DNA of 32,000 nt from an uncultured Clostridium sp. (GTDB lineage Bacteria > Bacillota > Clostridia > TANB77 > CAG-508), in assembly GCA_930980855.1 (NCBI GenBank), contig CAKNIZ010000004.1, positions 61,002 to 93,001 of the forward strand, in the 5' to 3' direction. Under the pieces are notes generated by a model. The model was not told the DNA's origin, did not search any database, and saw only the letters and a program-made list of their open reading frames with translations. Shown here piece after piece: positions 2,195-32,000 of the stretch. Position 1 is the first letter of the stretch; every line of letters begins with the position of its first letter. Position numbers and translations under genes: made by a program.

Positions 2195-3181
2195 ATGGAA
2201 AAAATTAAAATTGGAATTTATGGTTATGGAAATTTAGGGAAGGGAGTAGAGCTTGCATTAAAAAATAATCCAGATATGCAGTTAGTAGGTATTTTTACTA
2301 GAAGAAATCCTACTGATGTACATGCGCTTTTTAAAGATACTCAAGTTTTCTCAGTAGATGATGCTGAAAAAATGAAAGATAAAATTGATGTTATGATTTT
2401 ATGTGGTGGCTCTGCAACTGATTTACCTGAACAAGGTCCTAAAGTTTGTAAATTATTTAATACAGTAGATAGTTTTGATACACATGCTAAAATACCAGAA
2501 TATTTCTCTAAAATGAATTCTGTGGCATTGGAATCAAATACTTTAGCTTTAATTTCTTGCGGTTGGGATCCTGGACTATTTTCATTAAATCGCTCTTTGC
2601 TAGAATCAGTTTTGCCTAATGGAAATAATTATGTGTTTTATGGCAGAGGCTTAAGCCAAGGCCATTCTGACGCACTTAGAAGAATAAAAGGTGTTAAAAA
2701 TGCAGTTCAATATACAGTACCTTATGATGAAGCTGTTCAAAAAGTGCGAGATGGAGAAAATCCTGAATTTGCTTCAGTTCGTGAAACAATGTGGAGAGAA
2801 TGTTTTGTTGTTTTAGAAGAAGGAGCAGATAAAAATAAAATAGAAAAGGAAATAAAGGAAATGCCTAATTATTTTGAACCTTATAATACAGTAGTTCATT
2901 TTATTTCTGAGGAGAAACTTAAGGAAAATCATAATACTATGCCTCATGGTGGCTTTGTTTTAAGAAGTGGAAATACAAGTGAGAATACAAATCAGATTGC
3001 AGAATTTTCTTTGAAATTGGATTCTAATCCCGAATTTACTGCTAGTGTATTAGTAGCTTACGCTAGAGCTATTTATAGAATGAAAAACCTTGGAAATACT
3101 GGCGCTATCACAGTTTTAGATGTTCCTGTTTCTTTGCTTTCTTCTAAAAATAGAGATGAATTGTTGAAAGAAATATTATAA
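2195..3181 (+). CDS. ddh: meso-diaminopimelate D-dehydrogenase
   Basis: 328 aa. The N-terminus MEKIKIGIYGYGNLGKGVELALKNNPDMQLVGIFTRR matches the Ddh Rossmann start (compare Corynebacterium IVGYGNLGR...PDMDLVGIFSRR). AGAGGTG RBS 7 nt upstream. Confidence 0.85.
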   Translation: MEKIKIGIYGYGNLGKGVELALKNNPDMQLVGIFTRRNPTDVHALFKDTQVFSVDDAEKMKDKIDVMILCGGSATDLPEQGPKVCKLFNTVDSFDTHAKIPEYFSKMNSVALESNTLALISCGWDPGLFSLNRSLLESVLPNGNNYVFYGRGLSQGHSDALRRIKGVKNAVQYTVPYDEAVQKVRDGENPEFASVRETMWRECFVVLEEGADKNKIEKEIKEMPNYFEPYNTVVHFISEEKLKENHNTMPHGGFVLRSGNTSENTNQIAEFSLKLDSNPEFTASVLVAYARAIYRMKNLGNTGAITVLDVPVSLLSSKNRDELLKEIL

Positions 3182-3185
3182 AAGT

Positions 3186-3228
3186 AAAAGTACTAGTTAT
3201 GAAAAATATTCATAATTAGTACTTTTTT
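3186..3228. terminator. bidirectional intrinsic terminator between ddh and tRNA-Lys
   Basis: AAAAGTACTAGTTATGAA (3186-3203) pairs with TTCATAATTAGTACTTTT (3209-3226), with one G.U or mismatch position. A/T runs flank it on both sides. Confidence 0.6.
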
Positions 3229-3231
3229 ATC

Positions 3232-3307
3232 TGGTGCACCTCCGGAGGGTCGAACTCCGGACCTTCTGATTAAGAGTCAGCTGCTCTACCAACTGAGCTA
3301 GAGGTGC
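3232..3307 (-). tRNA. tRNA-Lys(CUU)
   Basis: The reverse complement gives GCACCTC TA GCTC AGTTGGTA GAGC A GCTGA CTCTTAA TCAGA AGGTC CGGAG TTCGACC CTCCG GAGGTGC A CCA. This is a full cloverleaf with anticodon CTT and an encoded CCA. Confidence 0.9.
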
Positions 3308-3416
3308 TTCTAAGCTACTTTTTTATTATAGTATTTTTTAGCTTAGTTGTCAAGGGGTTTCATTTATAGATTTTTCGGCTTACTTGTGCATTTTATTGTA
3401 TTTTAGCATGTGACAA

Positions 3417-11022: not shown

Positions 11023-11051
11023 TTGACAAAAGCGTTTACATGTAGTAGAAT
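11023..11051 (+). promoter_or_regulatory. SigA-type promoter (TTGACA-N17-TAGAAT) of the tRNA operon
   Basis: TTGACA at 11023-11028 and TAGAAT at 11046-11051, about 40 nt upstream of the first tRNA. Confidence 0.5.
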
Positions 11052-11089: not shown

Positions 11090-11165
11090 GAGTCATTAGC
11101 TCAGTTGGTAGAGCACTTGACTTTTAATCAAGTTGTCCGGGGTTCGATTCCCCGATGGCTCACCA
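11090..11165 (+). tRNA. tRNA-Lys(UUU)
   Basis: GAGTCAT TA GCTC AGTTGGTA GAGC A CTTGA CTTTTAA TCAAG ... CGGGG TTCGATT CCCCG ATGGCTC A CCA. Canonical cloverleaf, very close to Bacillus tRNA-Lys. Confidence 0.95.
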
Positions 11166-11169
11166 TTAC

Positions 11170-11244
11170 GGCCCCGTGGTCAAGCGGTTAAGACATCGCC
11201 CTTTCACGGCGGAGACATGGGTTCGATTCCCGTCGGGGTCACCA
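11170..11244 (+). tRNA. tRNA-Glu(UUC)
   Basis: GGCCCCGTGGTCAAGCGGTTAAGACATCGCCCTTTCACGGCGGAGACATGGGTTCGATTCCCGTCGGGGTCACCA. The anticodon loop is CTTTCAC, and the sequence is close to Bacillus tRNA-Glu. Confidence 0.95.
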
Positions 11245-11247
11245 TAC

Positions 11248-11549
11248 GCCACTTTAGCTCAGCTGGTAGAGCAACTGACTTGTGGGATAGGTAATTTATT
11301 TACTTTGAACTATCTTGCACCTTTGCGAGGAAACTTGCAAAGTGGACATCGCTAATTCGGGGAAGGCTAAATAGTAATATATGCTAATCCCGAGCTAGAA
11401 AGAAATTTCGAGTGTAGAGACTTTATACGATGTGCCTAAGGTTTATTCTATGGCAAAGAGAAAGTCCAGACCACAAACATTATATGGCAATGAAAATTGT
11501 AGTGGTATGAATCAGTAGGTCGTCCGTTCAAATCGGACAAGTGGCTCCA
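11248..11549 (+). tRNA. tRNA-Thr(UGU) gene interrupted by a group I intron (exons 11248-11283 and 11510-11549)
   Basis: The joined exons give GCCACTT TA GCTC AGCTGGTA GAGC A ACTGA CTTGTAA TCAGT AGGTC GTCCG TTCAAAT CGGAC AAGTGGC T CCA (76 nt). The stretch GAGCAACTGACTTGTAATCAGTAGGT is identical to Bacillus tRNA-Thr(UGU). Confidence 0.85.
11284..11509 (+). ncRNA. group I (IC3-like) self-splicing intron in the tRNA-Thr anticodon loop
   Basis: A 9-bp P1 forms between exon UGU plus intron GGGAUA (11281-11289) and UAUCUUGCA (11311-11319), with a U.G wobble at the splice site. P2 is UUUGCGAG-GAAA-CUUGCAAA (11322-11341). Core stretches AAUUCGGGGAAGGCUAAAUAG and GUGUAGAGACU..GUGCCUAAGG..CUAUGG resemble the Azoarcus and Anabaena tRNA introns. 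The intron ends in G at 11509. It is too short to hold an ORF. Confidence 0.85.
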
Positions 11550-11606: not shown

Positions 11607-12002
11607 ATGTGCTTAATGTATTGTTTAAATTGTGGTTCTATATTATGCAAGAACAGAAAGTTTTGTAATAATAAATGTCAAAAAGAATATGAATACAAAA
11701 GATTTATTGTTGCATGGAAAAATGGTAAAGAATCTGGCCTACGTGGCCAATACCAAACTTCTATGTATATTAAAACGTATCTTTTCAATAAATATAATAA
11801 TAAATGTGCTAGATGTGGATGGAGTGAAAAAAATATATACACTAATACTATTCCTTTAGAAATTGAGCATATTGACGGAAATTTTCAGAATAATTCTGAA
11901 GATAATTTATTATTATTATGTCCAAATTGCCACTCTTTGACTGGTACATATAAAGGAGCGAATAAAAATGGTAGAAAATCAAGAAAAAAATACTCAAAAT
12001 AG
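11607..12002 (+). CDS. HNH (His-Me finger) endonuclease with N-terminal zinc ribbon
   Basis: CLNCG...CNNKC zinc ribbon, then CARCGW...EIEHIDGNFQNNSEDNLLLLCPNCH, the HNH motif flanked by CxxC pairs. The ATG at 11616 has better spacing from AGGA (11603-11606) than the one at 11607. Confidence 0.8.
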   Translation: MCLMYCLNCGSILCKNRKFCNNKCQKEYEYKRFIVAWKNGKESGLRGQYQTSMYIKTYLFNKYNNKCARCGWSEKNIYTNTIPLEIEHIDGNFQNNSEDNLLLLCPNCHSLTGTYKGANKNGRKSRKKYSK

Positions 12003-12711
12003 AATAGCTATTGTTACAGGTGGCTCAAGGGGTATAGGAGCTTCAATTGTAAAAAAACTTTCTCAAAATGGTTTTTCAGTTATTTTGAATTATAACAATT
12101 CATTTGAAAGTGCAAAGCAAATAACTTCTGAAAACCCTAATATAGATAATTTTAAGGCAGATGTCTCAAATTATGATGAAGTTTGTAATCTAATAAATTT
12201 TACAATTAATAAATATGGAAAAATTGATTTATTAGTTAATAATGCTGGAATTGATTTAATTAAAACTATTAATGACATCACTCCTCAAGATTTTGATAAC
12301 ATTCTTAAAACTAATTTATATTCTGCATTTTATACTTCGAAAGAAGTTTCTAAATACATGATTCAAGCTAAAAATGGAACCATTATAAATATATCTTCTA
12401 TATGGGGGCTAGTTGGTGCTTCATGTGAAATGGCTTATTCTGTTAGTAAAGCTGGATTAGATGCAATGACTAAATCTTTAGCAAAAGAATTAGGCCCATC
12501 AAATATTAAAGTTAACAGCATAGCTCCAGGAATTATTGATACAGATATGAATAAATTTTTGAGTAATGAAGAAAAAAATCAGATAATAAATGAAATTCCT
12601 TTAGAAAAGATTGGAAAGCCCAGTGATATAGCTGATTGTGTGTTGTTTTTAGCAAATTCCAATTATATTACTGGACAAATTATTCAAGTAAATGGTGGAT
12701 GGAATATATAA
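11968..12711 (+). CDS. short-chain dehydrogenase/reductase, FabG-like (3-oxoacyl-ACP reductase family)
   Basis: TGGSRGIG cofactor motif, NNAG, and S...YSVSK catalytic tetrad elements. AAAGGAG RBS 8 nt upstream of the ATG. The start overlaps the HNH ORF by 35 nt. Confidence 0.8.
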   Translation: MVENQEKNTQNRIAIVTGGSRGIGASIVKKLSQNGFSVILNYNNSFESAKQITSENPNIDNFKADVSNYDEVCNLINFTINKYGKIDLLVNNAGIDLIKTINDITPQDFDNILKTNLYSAFYTSKEVSKYMIQAKNGTIINISSIWGLVGASCEMAYSVSKAGLDAMTKSLAKELGPSNIKVNSIAPGIIDTDMNKFLSNEEKNQIINEIPLEKIGKPSDIADCVLFLANSNYITGQIIQVNGGWNI

Positions 12712-13198: not shown

Positions 13199-14876
13199 AT
13201 TTATTTTTAATATTTTATTTAATTTCTTTACACTTTTTATCTATTTAGCATTATTTAAACCTATAATATTTTCCAATTATTTAACTGTTCACAGTAATTT
13301 TAAAATTTTTAATTTCCTATTAGAGGACCCTACTTTATGGAATAATTTTAAAGTTATTCATATTATTGCATTTGTGTTTTCTTCTTTAATACTTTGTAAT
13401 TTTCTTTATTCAAATTTTCTTTTAAAATTTTTTAAAATTCGAGAAAAGAATGAAGTTTTTGTCCCATCTGCTTCAGAATTAAGCCTTCTTATAGGAAAAA
13501 ATTATAAAAACATACCTGTTTATATTTCTGAAAAAAGCTTATACCAGAATATCTTAATCACTGGAGGAATAGGCACTGGAAAAACAGCTTCTGCAATGTA
13601 TCCTTTTACAAAACAGTTAATTAATTATATGAACAATGATTTTAATAAAAAACTTGGTTTCTTAATATTAGATGTTAAAGGTAACTATTATTCGAAAGTA
13701 TTAGAGTTTGCTAAACAATCTAATAGATTAGATGATGTTATAGTTATTGAATTAAATGGTAAATATACCTATAATCCGCTAGATAAGCCAAATTTAAAAG
13801 CCTCTATATTAGCCAACAGATTAAAAAATATATTACTATTATTTTCTCCAAATAACTCTGAATCTTTTTGGCTTGATAAAGCCGAGCAAGTTATAGAAAA
13901 TCTTATAATTTTTTGCAGAACATATAATAATAAATATGTTACATTTGACGAACTTCATAAATTAATAACAGATAAATCTTATTATACTTCTAAATTAGTT
14001 GATGTTCGAAAAATATTTTTATCCGGAAAATTAAATGAATCTGAAATATATGATTTATTATCAAGTATAACTTTTTTAGAAAAAGATTTTTTTACTTTAG
14101 ATGATAGAACACTTAATTTATTAAAATCTGAAATTACAAGAATTACTAATTGTTTTGTGTCTGATTATGAAATTCTTCATACTTTTTGTCCTCCAAAATA
14201 TAAAGAAAATTTTTATGGATTTGAAGAAGCAATTTCAAAAGGAAAAATAGTAGTATTAAATCTCAATATTGGTAAATACCGCAATATCTCCAAAATTATT
14301 GCTGCATATTTAAAGTTAGACTTTCAAACAGATGTAATTTCTGGGTTATCTAGTAAAGTAATTAGACCTATGGTATTTATATCTGATGAATACCAGGAAT
14401 ATGTTACAGTATCTGACGCTGAATTCTTTGCTCAAAGCCGTGAAGCTAAATGTATAAATATAGTGTGTACTCAAAGTTATTCTTCATTGCAAAATACCTT
14501 AAACAATTCTTCTAGTGTCAAAGTTATTGTTCAAAATTTGGTAAATAAACTTTGGTTTAGAACTGATGATATTTTTACAATTGAAGATGCTCAAAAGCAG
14601 ATTGGTAAAGAAGATAAAGAAAAAATTTCTAAAACTCTTTCTGAAAACTCTAAGGAAAGTAATTATAATTATTTATTAAAAAACTTTACTTCTTTAGACT
14701 CTAATTTATCTGAAAGTATCAATACTTATACTCAATTTGATTATTCTTATGATTATAATTTCTTTACTCAAGAATTACAAACCTTTACTTGTTTATCTTT
14801 TCTATCTGATGGAGAAAAAATTATTAAACCCCAAAAACTGAAAATGTTACCCTATTTTAAGGAGGATGATGAATGA
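13194..14876 (+). CDS. type IV coupling protein (VirD4/TraG/TraD family ATPase)
   Basis: Walker A ITGGIGTGKTAS, then LILDVKGNYY, Walker B VFISDEYQEY, and CTQSYSSL. The ORF track starts at GTG 13374, in the middle of a TM helix. The frame is open from 13182 and adds two TM helices (IFNILFNFFTLFIYLALF and VIHIIAFVFSSLILCNF). A GGAGGG (13182-13187) lies 6 nt before ATT 13194. Confidence 0.75.
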   Translation: MRFIFNILFNFFTLFIYLALFKPIIFSNYLTVHSNFKIFNFLLEDPTLWNNFKVIHIIAFVFSSLILCNFLYSNFLLKFFKIREKNEVFVPSASELSLLIGKNYKNIPVYISEKSLYQNILITGGIGTGKTASAMYPFTKQLINYMNNDFNKKLGFLILDVKGNYYSKVLEFAKQSNRLDDVIVIELNGKYTYNPLDKPNLKASILANRLKNILLLFSPNNSESFWLDKAEQVIENLIIFCRTYNNKYVTFDELHKLITDKSYYTSKLVDVRKIFLSGKLNESEIYDLLSSITFLEKDFFTLDDRTLNLLKSEITRITNCFVSDYEILHTFCPPKYKENFYGFEEAISKGKIVVLNLNIGKYRNISKIIAAYLKLDFQTDVISGLSSKVIRPMVFISDEYQEYVTVSDAEFFAQSREAKCINIVCTQSYSSLQNTLNNSSSVKVIVQNLVNKLWFRTDDIFTIEDAQKQIGKEDKEKISKTLSENSKESNYNYLLKNFTSLDSNLSESINTYTQFDYSYDYNFFTQELQTFTCLSFLSDGEKIIKPQKLKMLPYFKEDDE

Positions 14877-16592: not shown

Positions 16593-17552
16593 ATGAAGTT
16601 AGAGCAAAATGATTTATCATTAATATTTTCAACCACTTCTATCCCTGATGTTTTCTTTACTGAGTATTTATCTCAGGCAAATGGAGATTTTATAAAAGTT
16701 TATCTTTATATGTATTTTTTATCTAAATATAATAAAGAAGTAAAAATTAATGATTTGTCTAAAAAATTAGAACTACCATTAAAAACAATTCAAGATGCAA
16801 TAAAATATTGGGAAGATTTAGGTTTACTTATTAGAAAGAATCAAGGATTCATAGTAGCTAATATACAGGAAATTGAATTAAATAAAATATATAAACCTAA
16901 AATTACAATTGCTCCTTCTGATATTGAAAAAGTTGCCGAAAATAAATATAGAGCTAAAGCAATTGATACTATAAATAATGAATTTTTCCAAGGTATAATG
17001 TCTCCTTCTTGGTATGGAGATATTGATTTATGGTTTAAAAAATATGCTTTTGATGAAGAAGTAATGATAGCATTATTTAGATACTGTTTTAATAAATCTG
17101 CTCTTCATAGAAGCTATGTTTCAACAGTTGCTGAAGCTTGGTATAAAAATAAAATAAAAACTTTTAATGATTTGGATTTATATTTCCAAAAAGAAGAAAA
17201 AGTAAAAACTATTCAAAATTCTATAAAGAAAAAATTAAGGTTACCTAGGCCTCTTAATATTTACGAAGAAGCTTATGTTGAAAAATGGAATATTACATAT
17301 GGATATGGAATGGATATTATAGAAATAGCATTAAAGAAATCAGCAGGTAAATTTAATTTTAGCTTTGAATATATGGACAAATTAATATCTGATTGGCATG
17401 AAAGGAATTTAAAAACTCCTGAACAAGTTAATAAACACTTAGAAACTCAAAAGAATATACCAGTTCAAAATAAGAGTATTCCTGATAAAAAAGAGTCCAA
17501 TTATTCACAAAGGCAATATACTAACTTAAATAATTTTTATAGTAATATATAA
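16593..17552 (+). CDS. DnaD-domain replication initiation protein (DnaD/DnaB-like replisome organizer)
   Basis: 319 aa. Winged-helix N-terminus (FFTEYLSQANGDFIKVYLYMYFL...). DnaD-like C-terminal repeat (..ALFRYCFNKSALHRSYVSTVAEAWYKNKIKT.. and ..IIEIALKKSAGKFNFSFEYMDKLISDWHERNLKT). Confidence 0.8.
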   Translation: MKLEQNDLSLIFSTTSIPDVFFTEYLSQANGDFIKVYLYMYFLSKYNKEVKINDLSKKLELPLKTIQDAIKYWEDLGLLIRKNQGFIVANIQEIELNKIYKPKITIAPSDIEKVAENKYRAKAIDTINNEFFQGIMSPSWYGDIDLWFKKYAFDEEVMIALFRYCFNKSALHRSYVSTVAEAWYKNKIKTFNDLDLYFQKEEKVKTIQNSIKKKLRLPRPLNIYEEAYVEKWNITYGYGMDIIEIALKKSAGKFNFSFEYMDKLISDWHERNLKTPEQVNKHLETQKNIPVQNKSIPDKKESNYSQRQYTNLNNFYSNI

Positions 17553-17566
17553 AGAGGTGATTATAT

Positions 17567-18574
17567 TTGAATGCGCAAAATTTGCAATCTCTTTTAATTG
17601 AATATGACCAAAAAAGAAATAGAGCTATTGTTGAAGCAGATCAGAGAAAAATTGAGTTATATGCTGAAATTCCTGGACTAGAAAAAATAGATAATGATAT
17701 TAACTCAATTTCTATTCGTACTATTAAGTCTATTTTAACAACTCAAAATTCAAAAGCTCCACAAGAACTTCAAAAAGAATTGAATATTTTAAAAGGTAAA
17801 AAAATAGAGATTTTAAAAAATGCGGGTAAATCTTTAAATGATTTATCTCCACATTTTGAATGTTCAAATTGTAATGATACTGGATATATAAAAACTTCCA
17901 ATGGTTCAGTTTTATGTCCTTGTATTAAACAAAGGTTATATAATATACAATATAATAATTCTAATATATATGATTTAGAAAATCAAAATTTCGATAAGTT
18001 TACATTTGACTATTATGCGGATACACCTGATCCGGATAAATATAATTCTGCAATTTCTCCTAGAGAAAATATGATAAAAATTAAAGAGCTATGTGATAAA
18101 TTTATAGAAAATTTTGATAATCCTGAAGAAAATAATTTACTTTTCTGCGGTAGTCCAGGTCTTGGCAAAACCTTTTTATCTTCATGTATAGCAAATGAAA
18201 TAATAAAAAAAGGCAAAACTGTATTATATCAAACTGCTCCTATAATGCTTGATAATATTATTGATTATAAATTTGGAAAAACTAATAATGATATTGTAAA
18301 AACTATTAGCAATGTTGATTTACTTATAATAGATGATTTAGGAACTGAGGCTAAAAACAATTTAAAGATTACCGAATTATTTAATATTCTTAATTCGCGA
18401 TTATTAAATCAAAACAATAGAATTACAAAAACTATCATTTCTACTAATTTGTCCCTACAAGAGTTATATAGTGCATATGAAGAGCGTATTTTATCCAGAA
18501 TTATTGGAAATTATAAAGCTTGTTACTTTTTCGGAGAGGACATTCGTATAAAAAAGAAATTTGCAAATAATTGA
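17567..18574 (+). CDS. DnaI/DnaC-like replicative helicase loader (AAA+)
   Basis: Zinc motif CSNCNDTGYI...CPC, Walker A GSPGLGKTFL and Walker B LLIIDDLGTE. TTG start 7 nt after GAGGTG. It immediately follows the DnaD-domain gene, as in clostridial primosome pairs. Confidence 0.85.
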   Translation: MNAQNLQSLLIEYDQKRNRAIVEADQRKIELYAEIPGLEKIDNDINSISIRTIKSILTTQNSKAPQELQKELNILKGKKIEILKNAGKSLNDLSPHFECSNCNDTGYIKTSNGSVLCPCIKQRLYNIQYNNSNIYDLENQNFDKFTFDYYADTPDPDKYNSAISPRENMIKIKELCDKFIENFDNPEENNLLFCGSPGLGKTFLSSCIANEIIKKGKTVLYQTAPIMLDNIIDYKFGKTNNDIVKTISNVDLLIIDDLGTEAKNNLKITELFNILNSRLLNQNNRITKTIISTNLSLQELYSAYEERILSRIIGNYKACYFFGEDIRIKKKFANN

Positions 18575-18582
18575 TTTTCTAT

Positions 18583-18653
18583 AAAACTCCCCAAACTTAT
18601 TGAGGAGTTTTAATTTAATAAAATTAGAGGCTATTTAAAATAGTCTCTAATTT
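18583..18653. terminator. two convergent terminator hairpins between the helicase-loader gene and gyrA
   Basis: AAAACTCC...GGAGTTTT (18583-18611) and AAATTAGAGGCTATTT/AAATAGTCTCTAATTT (18621-18653). Confidence 0.5.
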
Positions 18654-18659
18654 ATTTTA

Positions 18660-21128
18660 TTATTCATTTTCTAAATCTTCGGTATCTTCTTTGATTGTTT
18701 CTATACTTACAACCTTTCCTCCATCGTTTGTTCTCATTAAAGTTACACCTTGAGTATTTCTTCCTAAAACACTAATTTCTTTAGCTTTAATTCTGATTAC
18801 TGTACCATTATCGGTTATCATCATTACATCTTCTTCTTCATTTGCTATTCTAATACCTACGATGTCTCCTGTTTTTGAAGTAACTTTATATGTGATAACT
18901 CCTTTTCCACCTCTAGTTTGTACTCTATATTCATCTAGCTCTGTTCTTTTACCGAATCCGTTTTCTGTAATTGCTAGTAATGTTTCTTTGCTATTTGTAA
19001 TTATAGATTCCATTCCTATAACAACATCTTCAGGGTCTAATCTAATTCCGATAACACCTTGTGCCGTTCTTCCTACTGGTCTTACATCTTTTTCACTAAA
19101 TGTAATGCACATTCCTTTTTTAGTTACTAGAACTATATTATCTTCTCCATCAGTCAACCTTACATCTATAAGTTCATCATCTTCTTTTAGGTTAATTCCC
19201 TGTAATCCAGTTTTTCTGGCTGAATCATATTCTTTTAGAGGTGTTTTCTTAATTATTCCTGATTTTGTAGCCATAAGCAAGAATTTACCATCTTCAAAAT
19301 TCTTAATTGGTATTACAGCTGTTATTTTTTCTCCAGCATCTAGAGATAATAAGTTAACAATAGCTGTTCCTTTTGCCGTTCTTCCCGCTTCAGGAACTTC
19401 AAATCCTCTTAATCTATATAATTTTCCTTTATTACTAAAGAATAATATTATATCATGAGTCGATGCACTAAAAATTTGTTTTACAAAGTCATCTTCTCTT
19501 GTTGTCATTCCAGTTATTCCTTTTCCGCCTCTTCTTTGACTCTTATATGTGTCTTGTGGCATTCTTTTTATATAACCAAAATGTGTTAGAGCAATTATAG
19601 ATTGTTCTTCTGTTATAAGGTCATCTTCATTGAATTCTCCTTCTGCAGCAACTATCTTTGTAAGTCTTTCATCTCCATATTTTTCTTTCATTTCTAGACA
19701 TTCTTCTTTGATGATATCATATACTAGTTTTTCACTTGCAAGAATTTCTCTTAAATGTGCTATTAACTTCATTAATTCTGCATATTCTTCTTCTATTTTT
19801 TCTCTTTGCAAGCCTTGTAATGTTCTTAGCCTCATATCTAGTATAGCCTGTGCTTGAATATCATCTAAGCCAAATCTTTCCATTAATCTTTCTTTTGCAT
19901 CATCATAAGATTCACGAATTATTTTTATAACTTCATCGATATTGTCTATTGCTATTCTTAAACCTTCTAATATATGAGCTCTTGCTAAAGCTTTGTCTAA
20001 ATCAAATTTTGTTCTTCTTAAAACTACTGTTTTTCTGTGATCAATGTAATAATCAAGACATTGTCTTAATGTTAAAATTTTGGGTTCATTATTAACCAAT
20101 GCCAACATTATTATTCCAAAAGAGTCTTGCATTTGAGTATATTTATATAATTGATTCAATATTACTTTTGCATTTGCATCTCTCTTTAGCTCAATAACTA
20201 CTCTTACCTTTTCTTCTCTATCAGATTCATCTCTTACTTCTGAGATTCCTTCTATTTTTTTGTCCTTTACTAATTGGCTAATATCCATTATTAGTTTTGC
20301 TTTATTTACTTGATATGGTAATGAAGAAACAATTATTCTTTGCTTATTACCACTCATTTCTTCTATTTCTGCTTCAGCTCTTAATGTGATTTTTCCTTTT
20401 CCTGTAGAATAAGCTTGTTTAATACCTTCTCTACCTAATATCATACCTCCTGTTGGGAAGTCTGGGCCTTTTACTATTTTAAATAAATCTTCATCAGATA
20501 AATCATCTTCTGATTCTATTATTTTAATAATTGCATTTAATATTTCTGTTAGATTATGTGGTGGAATATTTGTAGCCATACCAACAGCTATTCCTGAAGA
20601 ACCATTTACTAATAATGCTGGTAATTTTGCAGGAAGTACAGTTGGCTCTTGTCTAATTCCATCAAAGTTCGGCATAAAGTCTACCGTATTTTTTTCAATG
20701 TCAGTAAGCATTGTTTCAGCTATTTTTGACATTCTTGCTTCTGTATAACGGTAAGCAGCAGCTCCATCTCCATCTATTGATCCAAAATTTCCATGTCCAT
20801 CTATTAGAGGATATCTTAATGAGAAATCTTGTGCCATTCTAACCATTGCATCATATACAGACGAGTCTCCGTGTGGATGATATCTACCTAAAACGTCTCC
20901 GACCGTTGTAGCCGATTTTCTGTATGGTTTGTCTGTTGTTAGTCCATCTTCATACATTGTATAAAGTATTCTTCTATGAACTGGTTTTAAACCATCTCTT
21001 ACATCAGGAAGAGCTCTTTGTACAATAACGCTCATTGCATAATCAATATATGCAGTTTTCATTTCTGCTTCAACATCTCTTTCAATTATCTTTCCTTCTG
21101 TAAATTCTGGCTCTTGTTTTTTATCCAT
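18660..21128 (-). CDS. gyrA: DNA gyrase subunit A
   Basis: [41 protein letters not shown] (active-site Tyr) and C-terminal beta-pinwheel repeats. The start is placed at MDKKQEP (21128), 5 nt after AGAGGGA. The ORF-track start is 21146. Confidence 0.95.
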
Positions 21129-21164
21129 TTGTATCCCTCTTTTCATGCTATTTTTACTTTATTT

Positions 21165-21936: not shown

Positions 21937-23080
21937 AGTATTTTTCCTTTATTATTTGTTTTTTTATTTTTTCTATTTCTTTATGTAATTTAGTTTTATA
22001 TGTCATATTTTTATTAATTAATAAATCATAATAATCATTTAATTGTATTTTTCCTAAAATATTATATTTTCTAAATATTTCTCTTAATATATTTTCATCC
22101 ATTGATTTAGCTGTGCATTTATTAAATATAATATTTATTTTATTTTTGCTAATTCCCCACTCCTTATTATAAATTTCTAATAATTTTTCTGATTTTTTTA
22201 TTTCTAGTAAATTTGCTCCCGATATAAATATTGCTTGGTCTGATAAGTTTATTATTTCTTTTGTATAATCTAAAAAGCTTTCGGAAGATGTATCATATAT
22301 GACAATGTCATATTCTTTTTTTAATTCCTCATTAATTTTTCTTATCTTTTTACTACTTAATTTGTACTTGGAATCTAATATTAAATTCATCCCTGAAAGT
22401 AAATCTATTTTTGTATTATTTTTTATTATATATTTTCTAAAATCTTGATTGTGATTTATTAAATCATTATTTTTTATTCCTTTTTTTATCTTACCTTCAT
22501 AATTTTTAATACCTAAAAGAGTATGTAAACTTTGATTTAAAACATCAAAATCAATTATTATACATTTTTTATTTTTCATACTTTGTGCAAATAAAATTGA
22601 AAAAACACTTTTTCCTATTCCATTTGTTCCTAAAATACAAATTATTTCTGAATTTTCTTTTGGTGATATTTCATCAGAATAAATTAAATTATTGAGTGGT
22701 AAAGTTTTTTGATTAAAAATTGAATTTTTTGAATTAGTTTTTTTCTCTTTATTTTTTATTGATGGAACATTATCTTTTTTTATTAAACAATTTTTTATTA
22801 AATTTATTATTTTTTCTTCATCATTTGTAGCAGGCGAAATTAATATTATTTTTATATTTTTATTAATTAAATTTATTTTTTTTATTAATTCTTCTGTACT
22901 AATATTTCCATCTAATTCTTCATTTAATATTATATAATCTATATTTGTGTCATTTTCCAAATATTCCAATATACCTTCTTTATATTGAATATCTGAACCT
23001 ATACTTTCTATTCTGTTTTCTTGTAGTTTATTATATAGACCTTTTTTACCTATTGCCGTTATGATTTTTTTTATTTTAAT
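21923..23080 (-). CDS. CpaE/TadZ/ParA-MinD-like P-loop ATPase with receiver-like N-terminal domain
   Basis: Walker A ILGTNGIGKSVFS. The ORF-track start (TTG 22969) truncates a conserved-looking N-terminus: the frame is open to 23086 and encodes IKKIITAIGKKGLYNKLQENRIESIGSDIQYKEGIL. There is no ATG/GTG/TTG in that extension; the candidates are ATT 23080 and ATA 23074, after AGGAGG. Confidence 0.65.
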   Translation of the reverse strand: MKIKKIITAIGKKGLYNKLQENRIESIGSDIQYKEGILEYLENDTNIDYIILNEELDGNISTEELIKKINLINKNIKIILISPATNDEEKIINLIKNCLIKKDNVPSIKNKEKKTNSKNSIFNQKTLPLNNLIYSDEISPKENSEIICILGTNGIGKSVFSILFAQSMKNKKCIIIDFDVLNQSLHTLLGIKNYEGKIKKGIKNNDLINHNQDFRKYIIKNNTKIDLLSGMNLILDSKYKLSSKKIRKINEELKKEYDIVIYDTSSESFLDYTKEIINLSDQAIFISGANLLEIKKSEKLLEIYNKEWGISKNKINIIFNKCTAKSMDENILREIFRKYNILGKIQLNDYYDLLINKNMTYKTKLHKEIEKIKKQIIKEKYYGIS

Positions 23081-24722
23081 TACCTCCTATTATTCTCTTT
23101 TCAAAGTCGGCAGAAATAATTTTGGTTAAAATATGTTCTTGTCCTACAAACATTAGACACTCTCCTTTTTTGAATGATTTAATTTCTATTTTCTCTTTGT
23201 TGGATAATTCTGTATATTTATCTAATACTTTAATATTTTCTTCTTCTAGATTAAAAAATACTTTGATGTTTGAATTATTTAAAATACTTTTTCCATATGT
23301 GCCTTCATCTAAGCTAAATAAATCTGAAACATCTTGAGTAATGGCTATTCCGCTTCCACCATATTTTCTAATTGTCTTAAAGATTTTATATATAAAACTT
23401 GCTACTTCTTTATTTGATGTTACTCCTATTAGTCTCCATATTTCATCTAAATATATTGCCTTCTTTTTTATTCTTTCTTTTTTAATTTTATTCCAAAAAA
23501 GTTCAATGAAAGCGTACATACCATATTTTATGTTTTCTTCACCCAATTCATATATGTCTGCAATTATTATATTATTATCTAAAATAACATTTGTATAATT
23601 ATTAAAAAATTTCATAGAGCCATATATAAATGGAAATAATTTGGCTTTCATTTTTTTATTTAATTTATTATATAAGTCCTCTAATATTGGCATATCTTTT
23701 GTATCTTTAAATTTTCCATTTTTATATAGACTTTCATCTTTAAATGTTATTTCTTTTTCCTTATATGTTTTTATTATTGCATCTTCTATAAGAGATTTAT
23801 CTTCCTCTTTGATATCTTGGATAATTAGTTTAAAAAAGCCTATTAATTTTTCTATTTTTGTCGCCAAATATCCTTTTTGGTCATCTTCTAAGCTTTCTTC
23901 TCTAATGTCTAAAATATTTATATATGTATTTGAGCTTGGTCCTAATTTTATTATAGTGGCTCCTAACGCCTTACCTAATTCGGAATATTCTCTATCTGGA
24001 TCTATAACATATTGTTCTAATCCAAATAAAGCATATCTTAAAATCATTAATTTTGTGAAATATGATTTTCCTGCACCACTTGTCCCAAATATGCACATAT
24101 TAGCATTTTTATATTTATTTGAGTCATATCTGTCTATAAATATTAATGAATTATTATATATGTTTTCTCCAATAAAAATACCCTCTTCATCAAATACTGC
24201 TGAAGAAATAAATGGATAAGTGGCAATTATAGAATTTGTTAAAATATTTCTTTTTGTAATTTCTTTCACGTCTGTATGATTTTGCATAAGTGGTAGGCAA
24301 GACAAATAAGTCTGTTCTTGTCTAAAATATGCTCTTTTTGTTTGCATACCTCTGCTTCTTAAAAAGCCTTCTATTTTTGTTAAATTGTACTCTAATTCAT
24401 CCTTATTTTTTGAGAATATCATTAAATACATATATAGAAAATATAATTCTTCATTATTAATTTGCATTTCTTTTCTAATATATTTAGCATCATTATATGT
24501 AAAAGCTGCTATTTCGGCATCTTGCCTATTTTCGCCTATTTTTTCTAAATCTACTTTTACATTTCCTATGTTATATGTTAGGTCTTTTATGACCTTATAT
24601 GTATCTTGTTTTTCATAATACATAGAAAGATATAAATTTATATTAGAATCTATTATACTTTTTAATATTAAATCATCTTGTTCTCTTATATAATTAACTA
24701 CTAATAATCCTGAATATAGCAT
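23076..24722 (-). CDS. VirB4/TcpF/TrsE-like T4SS ATPase, C-terminal two thirds (frame open up to 24869)
   Basis: Walker A IFGTSGAGKSYFTK, then YVIDPDREY, Walker B IYLDEIWRL, and GIAITQDVSDL. The upstream in-frame extension encodes ..YLSPSYINLNNPKYIEIDGMLYSGLLVVNY, which still looks like VirB4. Confidence 0.8.
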   Translation of the reverse strand: MLYSGLLVVNYIREQDDLILKSIIDSNINLYLSMYYEKQDTYKVIKDLTYNIGNVKVDLEKIGENRQDAEIAAFTYNDAKYIRKEMQINNEELYFLYMYLMIFSKNKDELEYNLTKIEGFLRSRGMQTKRAYFRQEQTYLSCLPLMQNHTDVKEITKRNILTNSIIATYPFISSAVFDEEGIFIGENIYNNSLIFIDRYDSNKYKNANMCIFGTSGAGKSYFTKLMILRYALFGLEQYVIDPDREYSELGKALGATIIKLGPSSNTYINILDIREESLEDDQKGYLATKIEKLIGFFKLIIQDIKEEDKSLIEDAIIKTYKEKEITFKDESLYKNGKFKDTKDMPILEDLYNKLNKKMKAKLFPFIYGSMKFFNNYTNVILDNNIIIADIYELGEENIKYGMYAFIELFWNKIKKERIKKKAIYLDEIWRLIGVTSNKEVASFIYKIFKTIRKYGGSGIAITQDVSDLFSLDEGTYGKSILNNSNIKVFFNLEEENIKVLDKYTELSNKEKIEIKSFKKGECLMFVGQEHILTKIISADFEKRIIGGN

Positions 24723-26076: not shown

Positions 26077-28035
<1,959 letters not shown>

Positions 28036-28063
28036 TTATTTTTATTTTTTAAATTTGTCAAGC

Positions 28064-28942
28064 TTATTTATTTCTATCTTTTATGTAAATTGCCAATTTT
28101 CTTAAGAATTCTGCTTCTTCTCCATAATCTTTTAATATTATTAGAGATTCGTTTATATTTTTATCTAATTCTTCTATTGATTTTTCTAGTCCGTATTTAC
28201 TAACGTAAGTACATTTATTTCTTTTTTTATCATTTCCTACAGGTTTTCCTAAAATTTTCTCATTTCCTATTTCAGATAAAATATCATCTTTTATTTGAAA
28301 TGCTAATCCTATTTTTTCAGCAAATAAAGTTAAATTATTTAAGTCTTTTTCTTTAGCACTTCCTAAAATTGCCCCTATTCTTACAGAAGCTCTTATTAAA
28401 GCACCTGTTTTATTTTTGTGCATATATTCTAGTTCATCTTCTAAAGCTTTTTTTCCTTCATATTCTGTATCAACATATTCTCCAATTATCATTCTATCCA
28501 CTGCACTTGATATTTCATAAAATGCTAATATTTTTTCATTTAACATTTCTTTTTGCATATCTCTACTTATAGTCAAATATGCATAGTTAAGTAAACTATC
28601 TCCTGCAAGAATTGCTGTTGCTTCATTAAACTGTTTATGATTTGTTGGTTTTCCATGTCTAAAATCATCATTATCTATTCCTGGTAAATCATCATGAATT
28701 AGTGAAAAATTATGAATCATTTCCATTGCTACTGCATATGGCATGCACTTTTCATAATCTTCTTTAAATATTTTATAAGTTGCGAGCATTAAAGTTGGTC
28801 TTAATCTCTTTCCTCCTGCCATTAAACTATATTCTACTGATTCATTTAATTTATGTTCTAGACATTCATTTTTTCTGATATATTTTTCTAATTCTTTATT
28901 TATTATATCGTTATATTGCTTTAATTCTTCTCTAAATTCCAT
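28064..28942 (-). CDS. ispA: trans-polyprenyl (farnesyl/geranylgeranyl) diphosphate synthase
   Basis: First Asp-rich motif LIHDDLPGIDNDDFRHGKP, second FQIKDDILS, and GKRLRP near the N-terminus. Confidence 0.85.
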   Translation of the reverse strand: MEFREELKQYNDIINKELEKYIRKNECLEHKLNESVEYSLMAGGKRLRPTLMLATYKIFKEDYEKCMPYAVAMEMIHNFSLIHDDLPGIDNDDFRHGKPTNHKQFNEATAILAGDSLLNYAYLTISRDMQKEMLNEKILAFYEISSAVDRMIIGEYVDTEYEGKKALEDELEYMHKNKTGALIRASVRIGAILGSAKEKDLNNLTLFAEKIGLAFQIKDDILSEIGNEKILGKPVGNDKKRNKCTYVSKYGLEKSIEELDKNINESLIILKDYGEEAEFLRKLAIYIKDRNK

Positions 28943-28963
28943 TTTAATCCCTTTTTTATTATA

Positions 28964-30007
28964 TTATATAATCTTTCCTTTTACAACATTGTGTGAAACA
29001 CTGTTATTTATATTAATGTTTTTAGTACATGTTATAATAACTTGAATATTTTTTATATTATTTAAAAAATTAGAAATTCTTTTTTCGTCTAATTCAGACA
29101 TAAAATCATCTAATAGTAAAATTGGATATTCTTGTATCTCATCATAAATTACATTTAATTCTGCTAATTTTAAAGATAATACGGCAGTCCTATTTTGCCC
29201 TTGTGAACCATATATATTTACAGCTTCTCCGTTTATAGATATAGAAAAATCGTCTCTATGAATTCCAGAATTCGTATATCCTTTTATATAATCTATTTTT
29301 CTTTGTTTTTTTAGGTTATTTAAAAATATTTCTTTATTTTCACAATTTGATAAATATTTTATATCAATTTTTTCTTTTGTAATTTCTGAATGAATATCTA
29401 CTATTTTTTCTCTAATTTTATCAATAAATTCTTTTCTATATGCATATACTTTTACACCATAATCTGCAAGTTTTTCATCCCAAATTTCAAGCATGGATTC
29501 GTCTTTTATATTCTGTTTTAAATAATTGTTTCTTTGTTCAAGTGTTTTTAAATATAAATTCAAATTTAAAACATATGCTGGTCTTAATTGTCCTATCATC
29601 ATATCTAAAAATTTTCTTCTTAAATTTGGACCATCTTTCAATAAATTAATATCATCTGGTGTAAATATTACTAAATTTATATTTCCTAATAGTTCACTTA
29701 ATTTTTTTAATTTTATATCATTTAAGTAAACACTTTTTTTATCAGAAATTTCTACCTTTATTTTTCCTTCTCTATCTTTTTTTTGAAAATGTGTTTGAAT
29801 TTTTAGAAAATCCTCCCCTTTTTTTATTAATTCTTTTTCTTTATTAGTTCTAAAAGATTTTCCAAAACTAGAAAGGAATATAGATTCTAGGATATTTGTT
29901 TTTCCTTGTGCATTATCTCCATAAAATATATTAATTTTATTTTCTAGATTTATTTCTTGATATTCATAGTTTCTAAAATTTTGTATTTTAATATTGTCTA
30001 TATACAT
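28964..30007 (-). CDS. recF: DNA replication/repair protein RecF
   Basis: MYIDNIKIQNFRNYE...FYGDNAQGKTNILE (Walker A), a signature-like SQGQNRT, and LLLDDFMSELD. The start is placed at ATG 30007, 5 nt after GGAG. The 7-codon extension in the ORF track runs into the DnaA-box palindrome. Confidence 0.9.
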   Translation of the reverse strand: MYIDNIKIQNFRNYEYQEINLENKINIFYGDNAQGKTNILESIFLSSFGKSFRTNKEKELIKKGEDFLKIQTHFQKKDREGKIKVEISDKKSVYLNDIKLKKLSELLGNINLVIFTPDDINLLKDGPNLRRKFLDMMIGQLRPAYVLNLNLYLKTLEQRNNYLKQNIKDESMLEIWDEKLADYGVKVYAYRKEFIDKIREKIVDIHSEITKEKIDIKYLSNCENKEIFLNNLKKQRKIDYIKGYTNSGIHRDDFSISINGEAVNIYGSQGQNRTAVLSLKLAELNVIYDEIQEYPILLLDDFMSELDEKRISNFLNNIKNIQVIITCTKNININNSVSHNVVKGKII

Positions 30008-30020
30008 TTTATCTCCAGTT

Positions 30021-30052
30021 TTATCCACATATTATGCATAATATGTGGATAA
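30021..30052. promoter_or_regulatory. perfect 32-bp palindrome made of two inverted consensus DnaA boxes
   Basis: TTATCCACA-TATTATGCATAATA-TGTGGATAA, lying exactly between the dnaN stop (30053) and the recF start. Confidence 0.7.
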
Positions 30053-31177
30053 CTATTCATTTTTTAAACGTATTGGTAAAATCATATATTTATAATCACC
30101 AGTTTCTTCTATACTTCTTATTATACATGGTGATATGCTTGTTCCAAAATCAATAAATACTTCTTCATCATCAATAGATCTTAGTACATCTAAGAAATAT
30201 TTTGGATTAAATCCTGCTTCTAAATTCTTTCCTTCTGTTGTTACATATAATTCTTCTTTTGCATCTCCTGTTTGATTTGTACAAGAAATTGTTATTTTTC
30301 CAACATCAACAGCAATTTTTACAGGATATTTCTTTTCTTTTTCTATACTAGATGCTGAAATAAGACTGATTCTTTCAAAACAATTTAATATTTGACTTCT
30401 ATTTACTCTTACTCTTGTTTCCCATTTTTGAGGTAAAACATTTGAATAATTTAAGAATTCTCCATCTAATAATCTTGTTACTATTTTACAATCTTCTATT
30501 TCAAATAGAGCTTGATTTTTAGATATTCCTATTTTTACAATTTCAAAAGAATCTGTTAATATTTTATTTATTTCTGTTAAAGTCCTTCCTGGAATTACAG
30601 CAGAAAAGTCATTTGTTTTTGTTTGTAAAAATTTACTTTTCCATGCTAATCTAAATCCATCTACTGCTACAACATTTAATTTATTTGTTTTTACTTCAAA
30701 TAAACATCCTGTAAAAATAGGTCTATTTTCTTCTGTACTGATAGCAAATATTGTTTTTCTAATCATATCTTTTAGAGTATTTTGCTCTATTTCTATAGAA
30801 TTTTCTACATTTATTTCTGGTAATTCTGGAAATTCTTCTGGATTCATTGTTGCTAATTTATATAATGAACCTTCACATTCTATAACTAATAGATTTTTTT
30901 CATTTACTTCTATTTTAATTTCTGTGTCAGGAAGCTTTCTTATTATTTCACTAAACATGATAGCATTTACAACTGTAGCTCCTTGTTCTTGTACATTACA
31001 ATCTTTAATTATATATTCTATGCCTAATTCTAAATCATAACATGTTAATTTTATATCATTATCATTAGTTTGAATTAATATTCCTTCTAATATTGGCATT
31101 GTTGTTCTAACAGCAACAGCTTTTGTTACGGAATTAAGAGCTTTAAGGATTTTTTCCTTTTCACAAATTAGTTTCAT
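30053..31177 (-). CDS. dnaN: DNA polymerase III beta sliding clamp
   Basis: 374 aa. MKLICEKEKILKALNSVTKAVAVRTTMPILEGILI..., three-domain length, and the ...YKYMILPIRL C-terminus. AAGGAG RBS. Confidence 0.95.
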   Translation of the reverse strand: MKLICEKEKILKALNSVTKAVAVRTTMPILEGILIQTNDNDIKLTCYDLELGIEYIIKDCNVQEQGATVVNAIMFSEIIRKLPDTEIKIEVNEKNLLVIECEGSLYKLATMNPEEFPELPEINVENSIEIEQNTLKDMIRKTIFAISTEENRPIFTGCLFEVKTNKLNVVAVDGFRLAWKSKFLQTKTNDFSAVIPGRTLTEINKILTDSFEIVKIGISKNQALFEIEDCKIVTRLLDGEFLNYSNVLPQKWETRVRVNRSQILNCFERISLISASSIEKEKKYPVKIAVDVGKITISCTNQTGDAKEELYVTTEGKNLEAGFNPKYFLDVLRSIDDEEVFIDFGTSISPCIIRSIEETGDYKYMILPIRLKNE

Positions 31178-31506
31178 TTTCTTTTTCTCCTTCTTTTAAT
31201 ATAATATAAATATTTATAGTAGTAGTAGTAATAGTATATGTGGATTGTGTTGATAACTTATCAAAAGCCTGAAATCCCTACGGAAATAGGTGTGGATAAC
31301 TCTGTGGATAACTTTAAATTTTATCCACACAATTCAAAAACTTGTCCACATTTTGAGTTATTCACATTTTATCCACAGGTTATTCACAGGTACCCTGTGG
31401 ATAACCAATGTGGCTGTTCCGTAAGTAGAATTACACTTATGTTGTATCGAACATTAATTTTCCAAACATAAATTTTACTAATAGCTACTTTTGTCAGATG
31501 TTGCAA
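31178..31506. promoter_or_regulatory. oriC (dnaA-dnaN intergenic origin) with DnaA-box cluster
   Basis: Perfect TTATCCACA/TGTGGATAA boxes at 31291, 31303, 31321, 31369 and 31396. One- or two-mismatch boxes at 31239, 31248, 31342, 31358 and 31380. Confidence 0.8.
31217..31237. repeat. TAG-TAG-TAG-TAG-TAA-TAG-TAT trinucleotide array (DnaA-trio-like)
   Basis: Read directly. It sits between an A/T-only tract (31178-31216) and two adjacent DnaA-box-like 9-mers (31239-31256). Confidence 0.6.
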
Positions 31507-32000
31507 CTATTTGTCGGAAAGTAGGATGTTTTTCACACTTTCCACAATTAATCTTGTGTTTGAATTGGTTTTGATTTCACTTTCAATTTTATTACAAGCA
31601 TGCATTACTGTTGTATGATCTCTTTTACCAAAATCAATACCTATTTGAGGTAATGACATTTGAGCAACGTTTCTACATAGGTACATAGCAATTTGTCTTG
31701 GAAAAGTTACATCATTAGATCTTTTAGCACCTCTTAAATCTGCTGGTGAAATGCTAAAGTACTTCCCTACTACATCTTGTATGTATTCTGAAGAAATAAC
31801 TTTATCTTGTTTTGCAATAATATCATTTATAGCTCGTTCTGTCATTTCCATTGTTATAGGTGTACCTGTAAGTGATGCTTTAGCAATTAATTTATTAAGA
31901 GTTCCTTCTAGTTCTCTAATGTTTGTATCCACTCTTGTTGCAATTGCCGATAAAATTTCGTCATCTATAATAATATTATCTAATTGTGTCTTTTTTCTTA
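31507..32000 (-). CDS. dnaA: chromosomal replication initiator DnaA, C-terminal part; gene continues past the right edge
   Basis: Domain IV signature: ..RSNDVTFPRQIAMYLCRNVAQMSLPQIGIDFGKRDHTTVMHACNKIE... The frame stays open upstream of the ORF-track Met to position 32000. Confidence 0.95.
   Translation of the reverse strand, partial: RKKTQLDNIIIDDEILSAIATRVDTNIRELEGTLNKLIAKASLTGTPITMEMTERAINDIIAKQDKVISSEYIQDVVGKYFSISPADLRGAKRSNDVTFPRQIAMYLCRNVAQMSLPQIGIDFGKRDHTTVMHACNKIESEIKTNSNTRLIVESVKNILLSDK

Follow-up and report, generated by a model that had tools for sequence, protein, structure and literature searches.

In the 32,000-nucleotide (nt) stretch of an uncultured Clostridium sp. genome that we analysed (the window; all coordinates below are window positions, and L-numbers denote retrieved loci), a tRNA-Thr(UGU) gene is interrupted by a 226-nt insert at 11284..11509 on the + strand. 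We regard this insert, which contains no open reading frame (ORF) of its own, as a true group I intron of the IC3 type that is able to splice, located between U36 and A37 of the tRNA, and put the probability of this reading at about 0.92. The assignment draws on the Rfam model RF00028, ARAGORN, a structure model with covariation and a profile of classical introns; the decisive evidence is comparative. A small gene for an HNH endonuclease follows the split tRNA gene, and the comparative patterns described below suggest that its product may be a free-standing homing endonuclease with a link to the intron.

As the first-pass annotation of this DNA had proposed, removal of the insert restores a canonical tRNA. 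Joining the 5' exon (11248..11283, +; nt 1-36, ending U34 G35 U36) to the 3' exon (11510..11549, +; nt 37-76) yields a 76-nt tRNA-Thr(UGU) cloverleaf in ARAGORN, with the anticodon loop CUUGUAA and an encoded CCA. The 5' exon is also defined by intronless orthologous alleles and the 3' exon by comparison with the exons of homologs. When introns are allowed, ARAGORN calls the native sequence as tRNA-Thr(tgt)i(37,226). The expectation that standard callers would overlook the gene proved correct: default ARAGORN, and Rfam at its gathering score, both miss the tRNA-Thr and call only a tRNA-Lys and a tRNA-Glu in this operon. tRNAscan-SE 2.0 is, by its own statement, not designed for the detection of group I introns (PMC8450103). 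A 66-amino-acid (aa) ORF at 11155-11355 (+), which spans the tRNA-Glu, exon 1 and the 5' end of the intron, corresponds to the spurious ORF that had been suspected over this locus.

The whole RF00028 model (1-253) aligns to 11297-11502 with 36.3 bits and E=1e-7 in a 501-nt search. This score falls under the gathering score of 50, and a whole-window Rfam scan reported no intron for that reason. The lack of a significant RF00028 hit, named beforehand as an outcome that would speak against an intron, was thus narrowly avoided: the E-value is low and the bit score stays under the family cut-off. The shortfall reflects the model. The RF00028 seed is without bacterial sequences, and a preprint on bacterial tRNA introns gives 18-20 bits as its working threshold (Williams 2020; bioRxiv 10.1101/2020.01.27.920355). 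Because the Rfam seed has no bacterial members, we built an nhmmer profile from six classical bacterial tRNA introns of the Williams seed alignment (two Leu, two Arg, one fMet and one Ile). Over the 32 kb, this profile matches a single segment, 11316-11509 (66.1 bits, E=3.2e-20), which ends exactly on the terminal G of the insert. A pattern combining exon and core segments had no matches in 100 shuffles of the window. The J3/4-P4, P4'-P6, J6/7-P7, P8-receptor and J8/7-P7' blocks are nearly identical to those of classical IC3 introns, and the segments GUGUAGAGACU and AAGAGAAAGUCCAG, which hold the P7 guanosine-site, J6/7 and J8/7 blocks, match the Azoarcus, Arg and Leu introns exactly or almost exactly. 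The near-identity to the Azoarcus and cyanobacterial IC3 introns that the first-pass annotation had pointed to therefore applies to the core blocks and does not extend to the whole intron, whose pairwise identity to individual seed introns is 48-63%, with the Arg(CCU) 36/37 and Thr 34/35 introns as joint best. As in the IC3 architecture, the intron is compact, without P5abc or P2.1; both of its GAAA loops are invariant.

We assigned the helices P1 to P9 by hand and then checked them computationally on the window sequence, where 70 of the 70 modelled pairs are standard pairs. All of the following elements are on the + strand. P1 (11281-11290 / 11310-11319) consists of 10 bp, UGUGGGAUAG/CUAUCUUGCA, three of them with compensatory changes; the 9 bp described at first sight are included in it. 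Its U11283·G11317 pair is the predicted U36·G wobble at the 5' splice site, and UG is found here in 75 of 75 alignable homologs. The guide pairs with three exon bases only, which are the anticodon itself, and P10 amounts at most to A37-A38 with U11315-U11316. An extension hairpin in the P1 loop, P1a (11291-11294 / 11300-11303), has compensatory changes in all four pairs. P2 (11321-11329 / 11334-11342) is capped by the GAAA tetraloop that had been noted (L2, 11330-11333, invariant), and its stem is 9 bp long, one more than first thought, with compensatory changes in eight of the nine pairs. P3 (11346-11351 / 11428-11433) has such changes in three of six pairs, and P4 (11357-11362 / 11388-11393) is invariant. 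In P5 (11366-11373 / 11378-11384) the alignment and the structure model place an 11-nt-type GAAA receptor motif, NCUAAR...UAUGN, and its first pair varies across homologs (GC 33, AU 32, UA 9, CG 6). The P6/P6a hairpin (11394-11401 / 11406-11413) combines an invariant P6 with a P6a in which four of four pairs covary. P7 (11417-11422 / 11463-11467) is formed by GAGACU with a bulged A on the 5' strand and AGUCC on the 3' strand; it is about 99% paired and invariant, and by alignment to the Azoarcus intron G11417-C11467 would be the guanosine-binding pair. The 3' strand of P7 is preceded by J8/7, AAAGAGAA, which is identical to that of classical IC3 introns. P8 (11434-11441 / 11448-11454) carries, again by alignment and structure model, the canonical 11-nt GAAA receptor CCUAAG...UAUGG. 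The intron closes with a three-way junction (11470..11506) of P9 (11470-11474 / 11502-11506), P9a (11478-11480 / 11484-11486) and P9b (11487-11491 / 11496-11500, with a GAAA loop at 11492-11495), and compensatory changes are found in each of the three. Given these loops and receptor motifs, tetraloop-receptor contacts between L2 and P8 and between L9b and P5 are probable. The terminal guanosine (omega-G) ahead of the 3' splice site, which had been pointed out before, is G11509; the corresponding position is G in 88 of 88 introns, 83 of which end in AUG. The P3-P8 core, on whose construction the intron reading had been made to depend, was thus obtained as part of a full P1-P9 fold.

Homologs were recruited from species-representative genomes with the pattern GACTTGT-N(45-75)-AWTCRGGGRA-N(40-70)-GYAGAGAC, which returned 103 loci. 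In 87 of them ARAGORN recognises a tRNA-Thr(UGU) that an insert of 205-242 nt interrupts at 36/37, and in six more the same gene is cut by the end of the contig. At least 93 species-level GTDB genomes carry the intron at the same 36/37 site of tRNA-Thr(UGU), a count that is a lower bound and biased to similar sequences, the search pattern having been taken from the window intron. The ten other loci were set aside (six tRNA-Leu(UAA) introns, an odd Met call in L032, and chance matches in L011, L072 and L099). Nearly all Thr loci are from metagenome-assembled genomes (MAGs) titled uncultured Clostridia, Clostridium sp., Bacilli or Bacillota, among them 'Firmicutes bacterium CAG:460', and the sources are human, rabbit, chicken and ruminant gut. 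The closest homologous introns are 96-97% identical to the one in the window. In eight MAGs titled Bacilli (L005, L009, L031, L035, L036, L042, L045 and L049) the split tRNA-Thr(UGU) heads a Thr-Tyr-Gln-Lys array; their exons are of another type, GCCGACATAGCG..., and an HNH gene is absent. Their intron is closely related to that of the other loci, and the same site is therefore occupied in MAGs of two classes. The intron alone (11284-11509) had no BLAST match in a plasmid collection, and for the whole split gene (11248-11549) the only match in a phage collection covered 36 nt of exon 1 and lay in a phage tRNA-Thr.

An alignment of 81 distinct intron sequences (A1) allowed us to compare the structure with controls in which the pairing partners were slid by 1-3 columns. 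Standard pairs make up 97.9% of the pair cells in the A1 structure, whereas the slid structures reach 35-42%; changes on both sides of a pair occur in 35 of the 70 pairs, compared with 9-16 after sliding, and the covariation score is 0.321 compared with 0.05-0.065. A conserved UUUGAA bulge lies on the 3' side between P1 and P1a (window 11306-11311; A1 columns 31-36, with A31 invariant) and is missing from the short-P1 variants L017, L038, L056, L064, L081 and L096; it could be a docking or protein-binding element. The exons, too, are informative. Of the 88 complete genes, that of the window among them, 87 yield a CCA-ending tRNA of 76 nt when the exons are joined, and the remaining gene stops where its locus ends. 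The joined exons come in 24 distinct versions, with compensatory changes in the acceptor and T stems. The interrupted gene thus evolves as a working tRNA, which is a strong argument that the intron is removed.

The same tRNA gene also exists without the intron. A metagenome scan for the uninterrupted gene (a GCCACTTT-type 5' half contiguous with ...CTTGTAATCAG...) found at least 120 loci. About 100 of the 120 listed have the neighbourhood of the window, that is, a DUF1858 gene and a TraG/VirD4-like gene on one side and genes for a short-chain dehydrogenase (SDR), a CBM53 protein and a LexA-like protein on the other, and 21 of the 120 listed equal the joined 76-mer of the window base for base. 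These 21 identical intronless genes fix the intron boundaries to the base. The conserved downstream neighbour, a FabG-like SDR gene (11968..12711, +) identified by domain and neighbourhood comparison, served as the synteny anchor. When the SDR proteins of 41 intron-bearing and 63 intronless loci are placed on one neighbour-joining tree, the two kinds of locus interleave, and over these 104 loci at least 18 state changes are needed, whereas shuffled labels require 32.6 on average and never fewer than 26; this count is indicative only, as the tree is a single-gene tree and the intron-bearing and intronless sets come from different collections. The interleaving requires repeated gain of the intron, its precise loss or both, or recombination at the tRNA locus.

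The split gene is the third of three closely spaced tRNA genes on the + strand that fill 11090-11549 in the order Lys-Glu-Thr. Both upstream genes are called by ARAGORN and by Rfam: the tRNA-Lys(UUU) at 11090..11165 (+; 74.1 bits) and the tRNA-Glu(UUC) at 11170..11244 (+; 64.4 bits). A promoter-like site, TTGACA-17-TAGAAT (11023..11051, +), lies 39 nt ahead of the tRNA-Lys and agrees with the consensus in 11 of 12 positions, a match to the consensus and nothing further. A separate, uninterrupted tRNA-Lys(CUU) gene is located at 3232-3307 (-).

The HNH gene (11616..12002, +) starts 66 nt downstream of the tRNA-Thr, with no terminator-like site found in the interval, and extends at its 3' end into the first part of the SDR gene. 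It encodes 128 aa counted from the methionine at 11616, the ORF being open from 11607, and is recognised by Pfam, PHROG and an alignment of homologs. The protein combines an N-terminal CxxC...CxxC zinc ribbon with an HNH motif. It scores 22.7 bits against the Pfam HNH model, whose cut-off is 21.4, and matches PHROG HNH families down to 1.9e-17. The H, N and H positions of the catalytic motif and the Cys ligands are invariant or nearly so in 32 homologs. An exact match to the protein is found in one 1.2-kb contig, without a tRNA. Among the intron-bearing genome loci the HNH gene behaves as an indel of 340-400 bp between conserved flanks: the distance from the tRNA to the SDR gene is 415-600 nt with the HNH gene and 51-118 nt without it. 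Its orientation is inverted in six loci, and it is a pseudogene in L004 (stop codon) and L050 (frameshift). Among the nearest relatives of the window intron it is present in some (L069, L058 and L051) and missing from others (L003, L007, L012, L020 and L071). Among SDR-anchored loci, a full-length HNH gene is found in 23 of 42 that bear the intron and in none of 81 intronless ones (Fisher 9e-14), two sets that come from different collections and are phylogenetically non-independent. When only loci with the GCCACTTT exon type are counted, the figures are 16 of 32 and 0 of 81.

The HNH gene has more than 536 relatives in IMG/VR. The best 80 of these (L105-L184, with the HNH match at about 3001-3390 of each locus) are 47-66% identical, and nearly all of them lie in tRNA arrays. 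The immediate neighbour of the HNH gene is a tRNA-Thr(UGU) in 42 of the 72 distinct loci among the best 80, and this tRNA accounts for 56 of the 581 tRNAs there. On L175 (2492-2964) the HNH gene is followed by two strong RF00028 group I introns of 121 and 89.5 bits. On L181 (2856-3612) an IC3 intron encloses the whole HNH ORF in its P1 loop, splits a tRNA-Ser(UGA) at CUU|G and ends in ...GGUAAG; RF00028 gives 49.2 bits, and the layout was read by eye. The tRNA-Thr(UGU) itself is split by an intron on two viral contigs, L305:1276-1543 and L306:1187-1502. L175, L181, L305 and L306 may represent phage, prophage or host DNA. According to a 2014 review, all phage introns known at the time were in protein-coding genes (PMC3984707). 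RF00028 gives no support to the long introns that ARAGORN calls near the HNH gene in L105, L107, L134 and L140, and we left these out of the count. On the viral contig L107 (1833-2452) a full-length ROOL RNA (RF03087, 305.7 bits) adjoins tmRNA and tRNA genes.

From the two-step, guanosine-initiated self-splicing that is the established chemistry of this family (PMC3984707), the intron would be expected to act as follows. P1 would form between the internal guide CUAUCUUGCA and a strand made up of the anticodon, U34-G35-U36, and the first seven intron bases. An exogenous guanosine, held at the G-C pair of P7, would attack after the U36·G wobble; G11509 would next take over the same guanosine site, and the free 3'-OH of U36 would attack the G11509-A11510 bond, ligating the exons into the 76-nt tRNA. 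As in Azoarcus, the fold would be braced by contacts of the GAAA loop L2 with its receptor in P8 and of the GAAA loop L9b with that in P5. As for the spread of the intron, the HNH enzyme may cut uninterrupted tRNA-Thr(UGU) genes at or near 36/37; the intron would shield the allele that carries it from this cut, and repair would copy the intron and the HNH gene together into the broken allele. That the two act as such a collaborative-homing pair on a bacterial chromosomal tRNA gene is a proposal we make tentatively, from comparative patterns, and at odds that fall somewhat short of even.

Several observations weigh against reading the insert as a working intron: the RF00028 score below the gathering score, the recruitment of the homologs with a pattern from the window intron, the invariance of P4, P6 and P7, which makes these helices uninformative by covariation, and a view of the genome that is limited to 32 kb. 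The sub-threshold Rfam score alone could speak for a chance resemblance or for another element, such as a fragment of an insertion sequence, a miniature inverted-repeat transposable element or an IStron. We consider this explanation rejected in view of the RF00028 E-value, the profile match and the shuffled windows, and also of the complete group I fold and the precise absence of the insert from intronless alleles; the insert has no ORF, and no transposase gene or terminal inverted repeats were noticed, although no repeat search was made. The same low score and the limited view of the genome, in which another gene could supply tRNA-Thr(UGU), would fit a dead tRNA gene with a decaying intron. 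This is very improbable, as decay would not keep the U·G wobble in every alignable homolog and the terminal G in every intron. Moreover, all pairs of the window intron are intact and covariation over the 81 homologs is strong, the exons form a perfect cloverleaf with compensatory changes across species, and the locus lies in an operon with a promoter-like site. An unlikely but less remote alternative is that the intron is genuine and self-splices inefficiently in the cell, either because a host protein or chaperone is needed or because slow splicing regulates the supply of tRNA-Thr. The intron is AT-rich (about 37% G+C in the RF00028 match), and its predicted fold is only modestly more stable than shuffled sequences (z = -1.9). 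However, all core elements and both tetraloop-receptor pairs of the self-sufficient Azoarcus-type IC3 fold are present and conserved, and classical IC3 tRNA introns self-splice in vitro (PMC3984707).

The role of the HNH gene is less settled than that of the intron. It may be independent of the intron, a selfish, phage-derived, free-standing endonuclease that homes into the 3' flank of tRNA-Thr, in which case its association with the intron would stem from linkage and shared ancestry; we regard this as quite possible, if below even odds. Among the 42 intron-bearing loci, 15 have no trace of the HNH gene and four have fragments only. L227, a contig of low coverage that breaks off within the SDR gene, has an intact HNH gene beside an intronless tRNA-Thr, and 5'-truncated HNH remnants are kept at 16 or more intronless loci. 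In addition, the tRNA-Thr genes that most phage relatives flank are uninterrupted and very divergent in sequence. These observations, and the non-independence of the two sets of loci compared, count against a joint system of intron and endonuclease. On the other hand, the uneven distribution of full-length HNH genes persists within a single exon type, and the interleaving of intron-bearing and intronless loci on the SDR tree fits poorly with simple inheritance within clades. The same HNH family also occurs inside a tRNA group I intron (L181) and beside intron-bearing tRNAs (L175), which argues for the collaborative-homing proposal over an independent endonuclease.

The classical settings of bacterial tRNA introns are four: Leu(UAA), fMet, Ile(CAU) and Arg(CCU). 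In Williams 2020 (bioRxiv 10.1101/2020.01.27.920355) these have grown to 21, and the seed alignment there includes Thr.5Ug, Thr.3Ug and Thr.2Ug. The first-pass annotation implied that a tRNA-Thr host in a low-GC Firmicutes genome was new; this does not stand, given the Thr settings in that source and the at least 93 low-GC Firmicutes genomes reported here. Neither the Thr host nor the 36/37 site is new, and the window intron is part of a large, under-annotated family and not a new kind of intron. The genome of 'Firmicutes bacterium CAG:460' was already public at the time of the preprint. A peer-reviewed description of a tRNA-Thr(UGU) group I intron was not found in our literature searches, which, apart from the Williams preprint, returned organellar or unrelated papers.

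The window intron resembles Thr.5Ug of the preprint in its tRNA-Thr host, its insertion after the fifth loop base (36/37), the U at position -1, the terminal G and the IC3-like core; the Thr.5Ug seed (Rba53), however, reads GGU in the anticodon, is rich in GC and shares only 47.5% identity with the window intron. The Agrobacterium-type tRNA-Arg(CCU) intron (Arg.5Ug; Bbo3) shares the 36/37 site, the P9/P9a/P9b end and the terminal ...GUGGUAUG, and at 63.4% has the joint best identity among the tested seeds. It differs in its host tRNA and its P1 guide, and the window family has a P1a with the UUUGAA bulge and a P6 of the form GCU...AGU instead of GCC...GGU. The Azoarcus tRNA-Ile(CAU) intron, known from crystal and cryo-EM structures (PMC3984707, PMC13168695), has the same 36/37 site with three exon bases in P1, the same combination of a GAAA L2 with an 11-nt P8 receptor and a GAAA L9 with a P5 receptor, and near-identical J3/4, P4, J6/7, P7 and J8/7, whereas overall identity is only 47.9%, and the GC-rich Azoarcus intron is without P1a and the P9a/P9b three-way junction. 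The cyanobacterial and plastid tRNA-Leu(UAA) intron shares the IC3 core and the P9 junction at 54-55% identity, but is inserted at 34/35 and uses a different guide. The 'group I introns' of 22-49 nt in a survey of cyanobacterial tRNAs (PMC5733544) are too short for group I and were not used.

The arrangement of intron and nuclease recalls collaborative homing (PMC3984707; mobE and I-TevIII trans homing, PMC2790892), in that an ORF-less intron adjoins a free-standing HNH gene and the nuclease gene, there in some loci and missing from others between conserved flanks, is strongly enriched at intron-bearing alleles. The known cases concern protein-coding genes of phages, whereas the window case would concern a bacterial chromosomal tRNA gene. 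The tRNA-fMet endonuclease and SegB are homing endonucleases acting on tRNA genes or clusters, and the window HNH protein is a candidate for the same role. The tRNA-fMet intron endonuclease is a PD-(D/E)XK enzyme and SegB a GIY-YIG enzyme. The former is encoded inside its intron; the window enzyme is a small zinc-ribbon HNH protein encoded outside the intron.

The remainder of the window is ordinary origin-proximal chromosome with about 26% G+C, and its other genes include one for a diaminopimelate dehydrogenase. Genes of the replication-origin neighbourhood (a partial dnaA, dnaN, recF, gyrB, gyrA, and DnaD-like and DnaI/DnaC-like loaders) occur at 26077-31932 (-) and at 16593-21146, and some 20 kb separate dnaA from the split tRNA operon. 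Two further genes are found amid this housekeeping DNA: one for a TrwB/TraG-D-like coupling-protein homolog at 13374-14876 (+), which keeps its synteny with the tRNA-Thr locus throughout the lineage (55-82% identity), and one for a TraG P-loop/HerA-like ATPase at 23076-24722 (-).

To a specialist the intron itself is no surprise. What it offers, through its scale, its natural intron-bearing and intronless alleles and the HNH association, is a direct test of the long-debated pathway by which ORF-less introns and free-standing nucleases come together. In at least 93 Firmicutes genomes of species level from gut and rumen, default callers and Rfam thresholds overlook an essential-looking tRNA-Thr(UGU), and tRNA sets, completeness values and estimates of codon capacity would seem to lack this isoacceptor. 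In the peer-reviewed literature bacterial tRNA introns are still pictured in four settings in cyanobacteria and proteobacteria, and the Thr(UGU) family adds a large example from low-GC genomes, one in which covariation is strong. Intron-bearing and intronless alleles at one orthologous locus are good natural material for the study of intron gain and loss, and the phage tRNA introns seen here may merit separate attention. The association with the HNH gene offers a testable case of collaborative homing outside the protein-coding genes of phages. If the proposal is true, the HNH family would capture stages from an ORF-less tRNA intron to a mobile intron, and phages would shuttle this family between gut Firmicutes.

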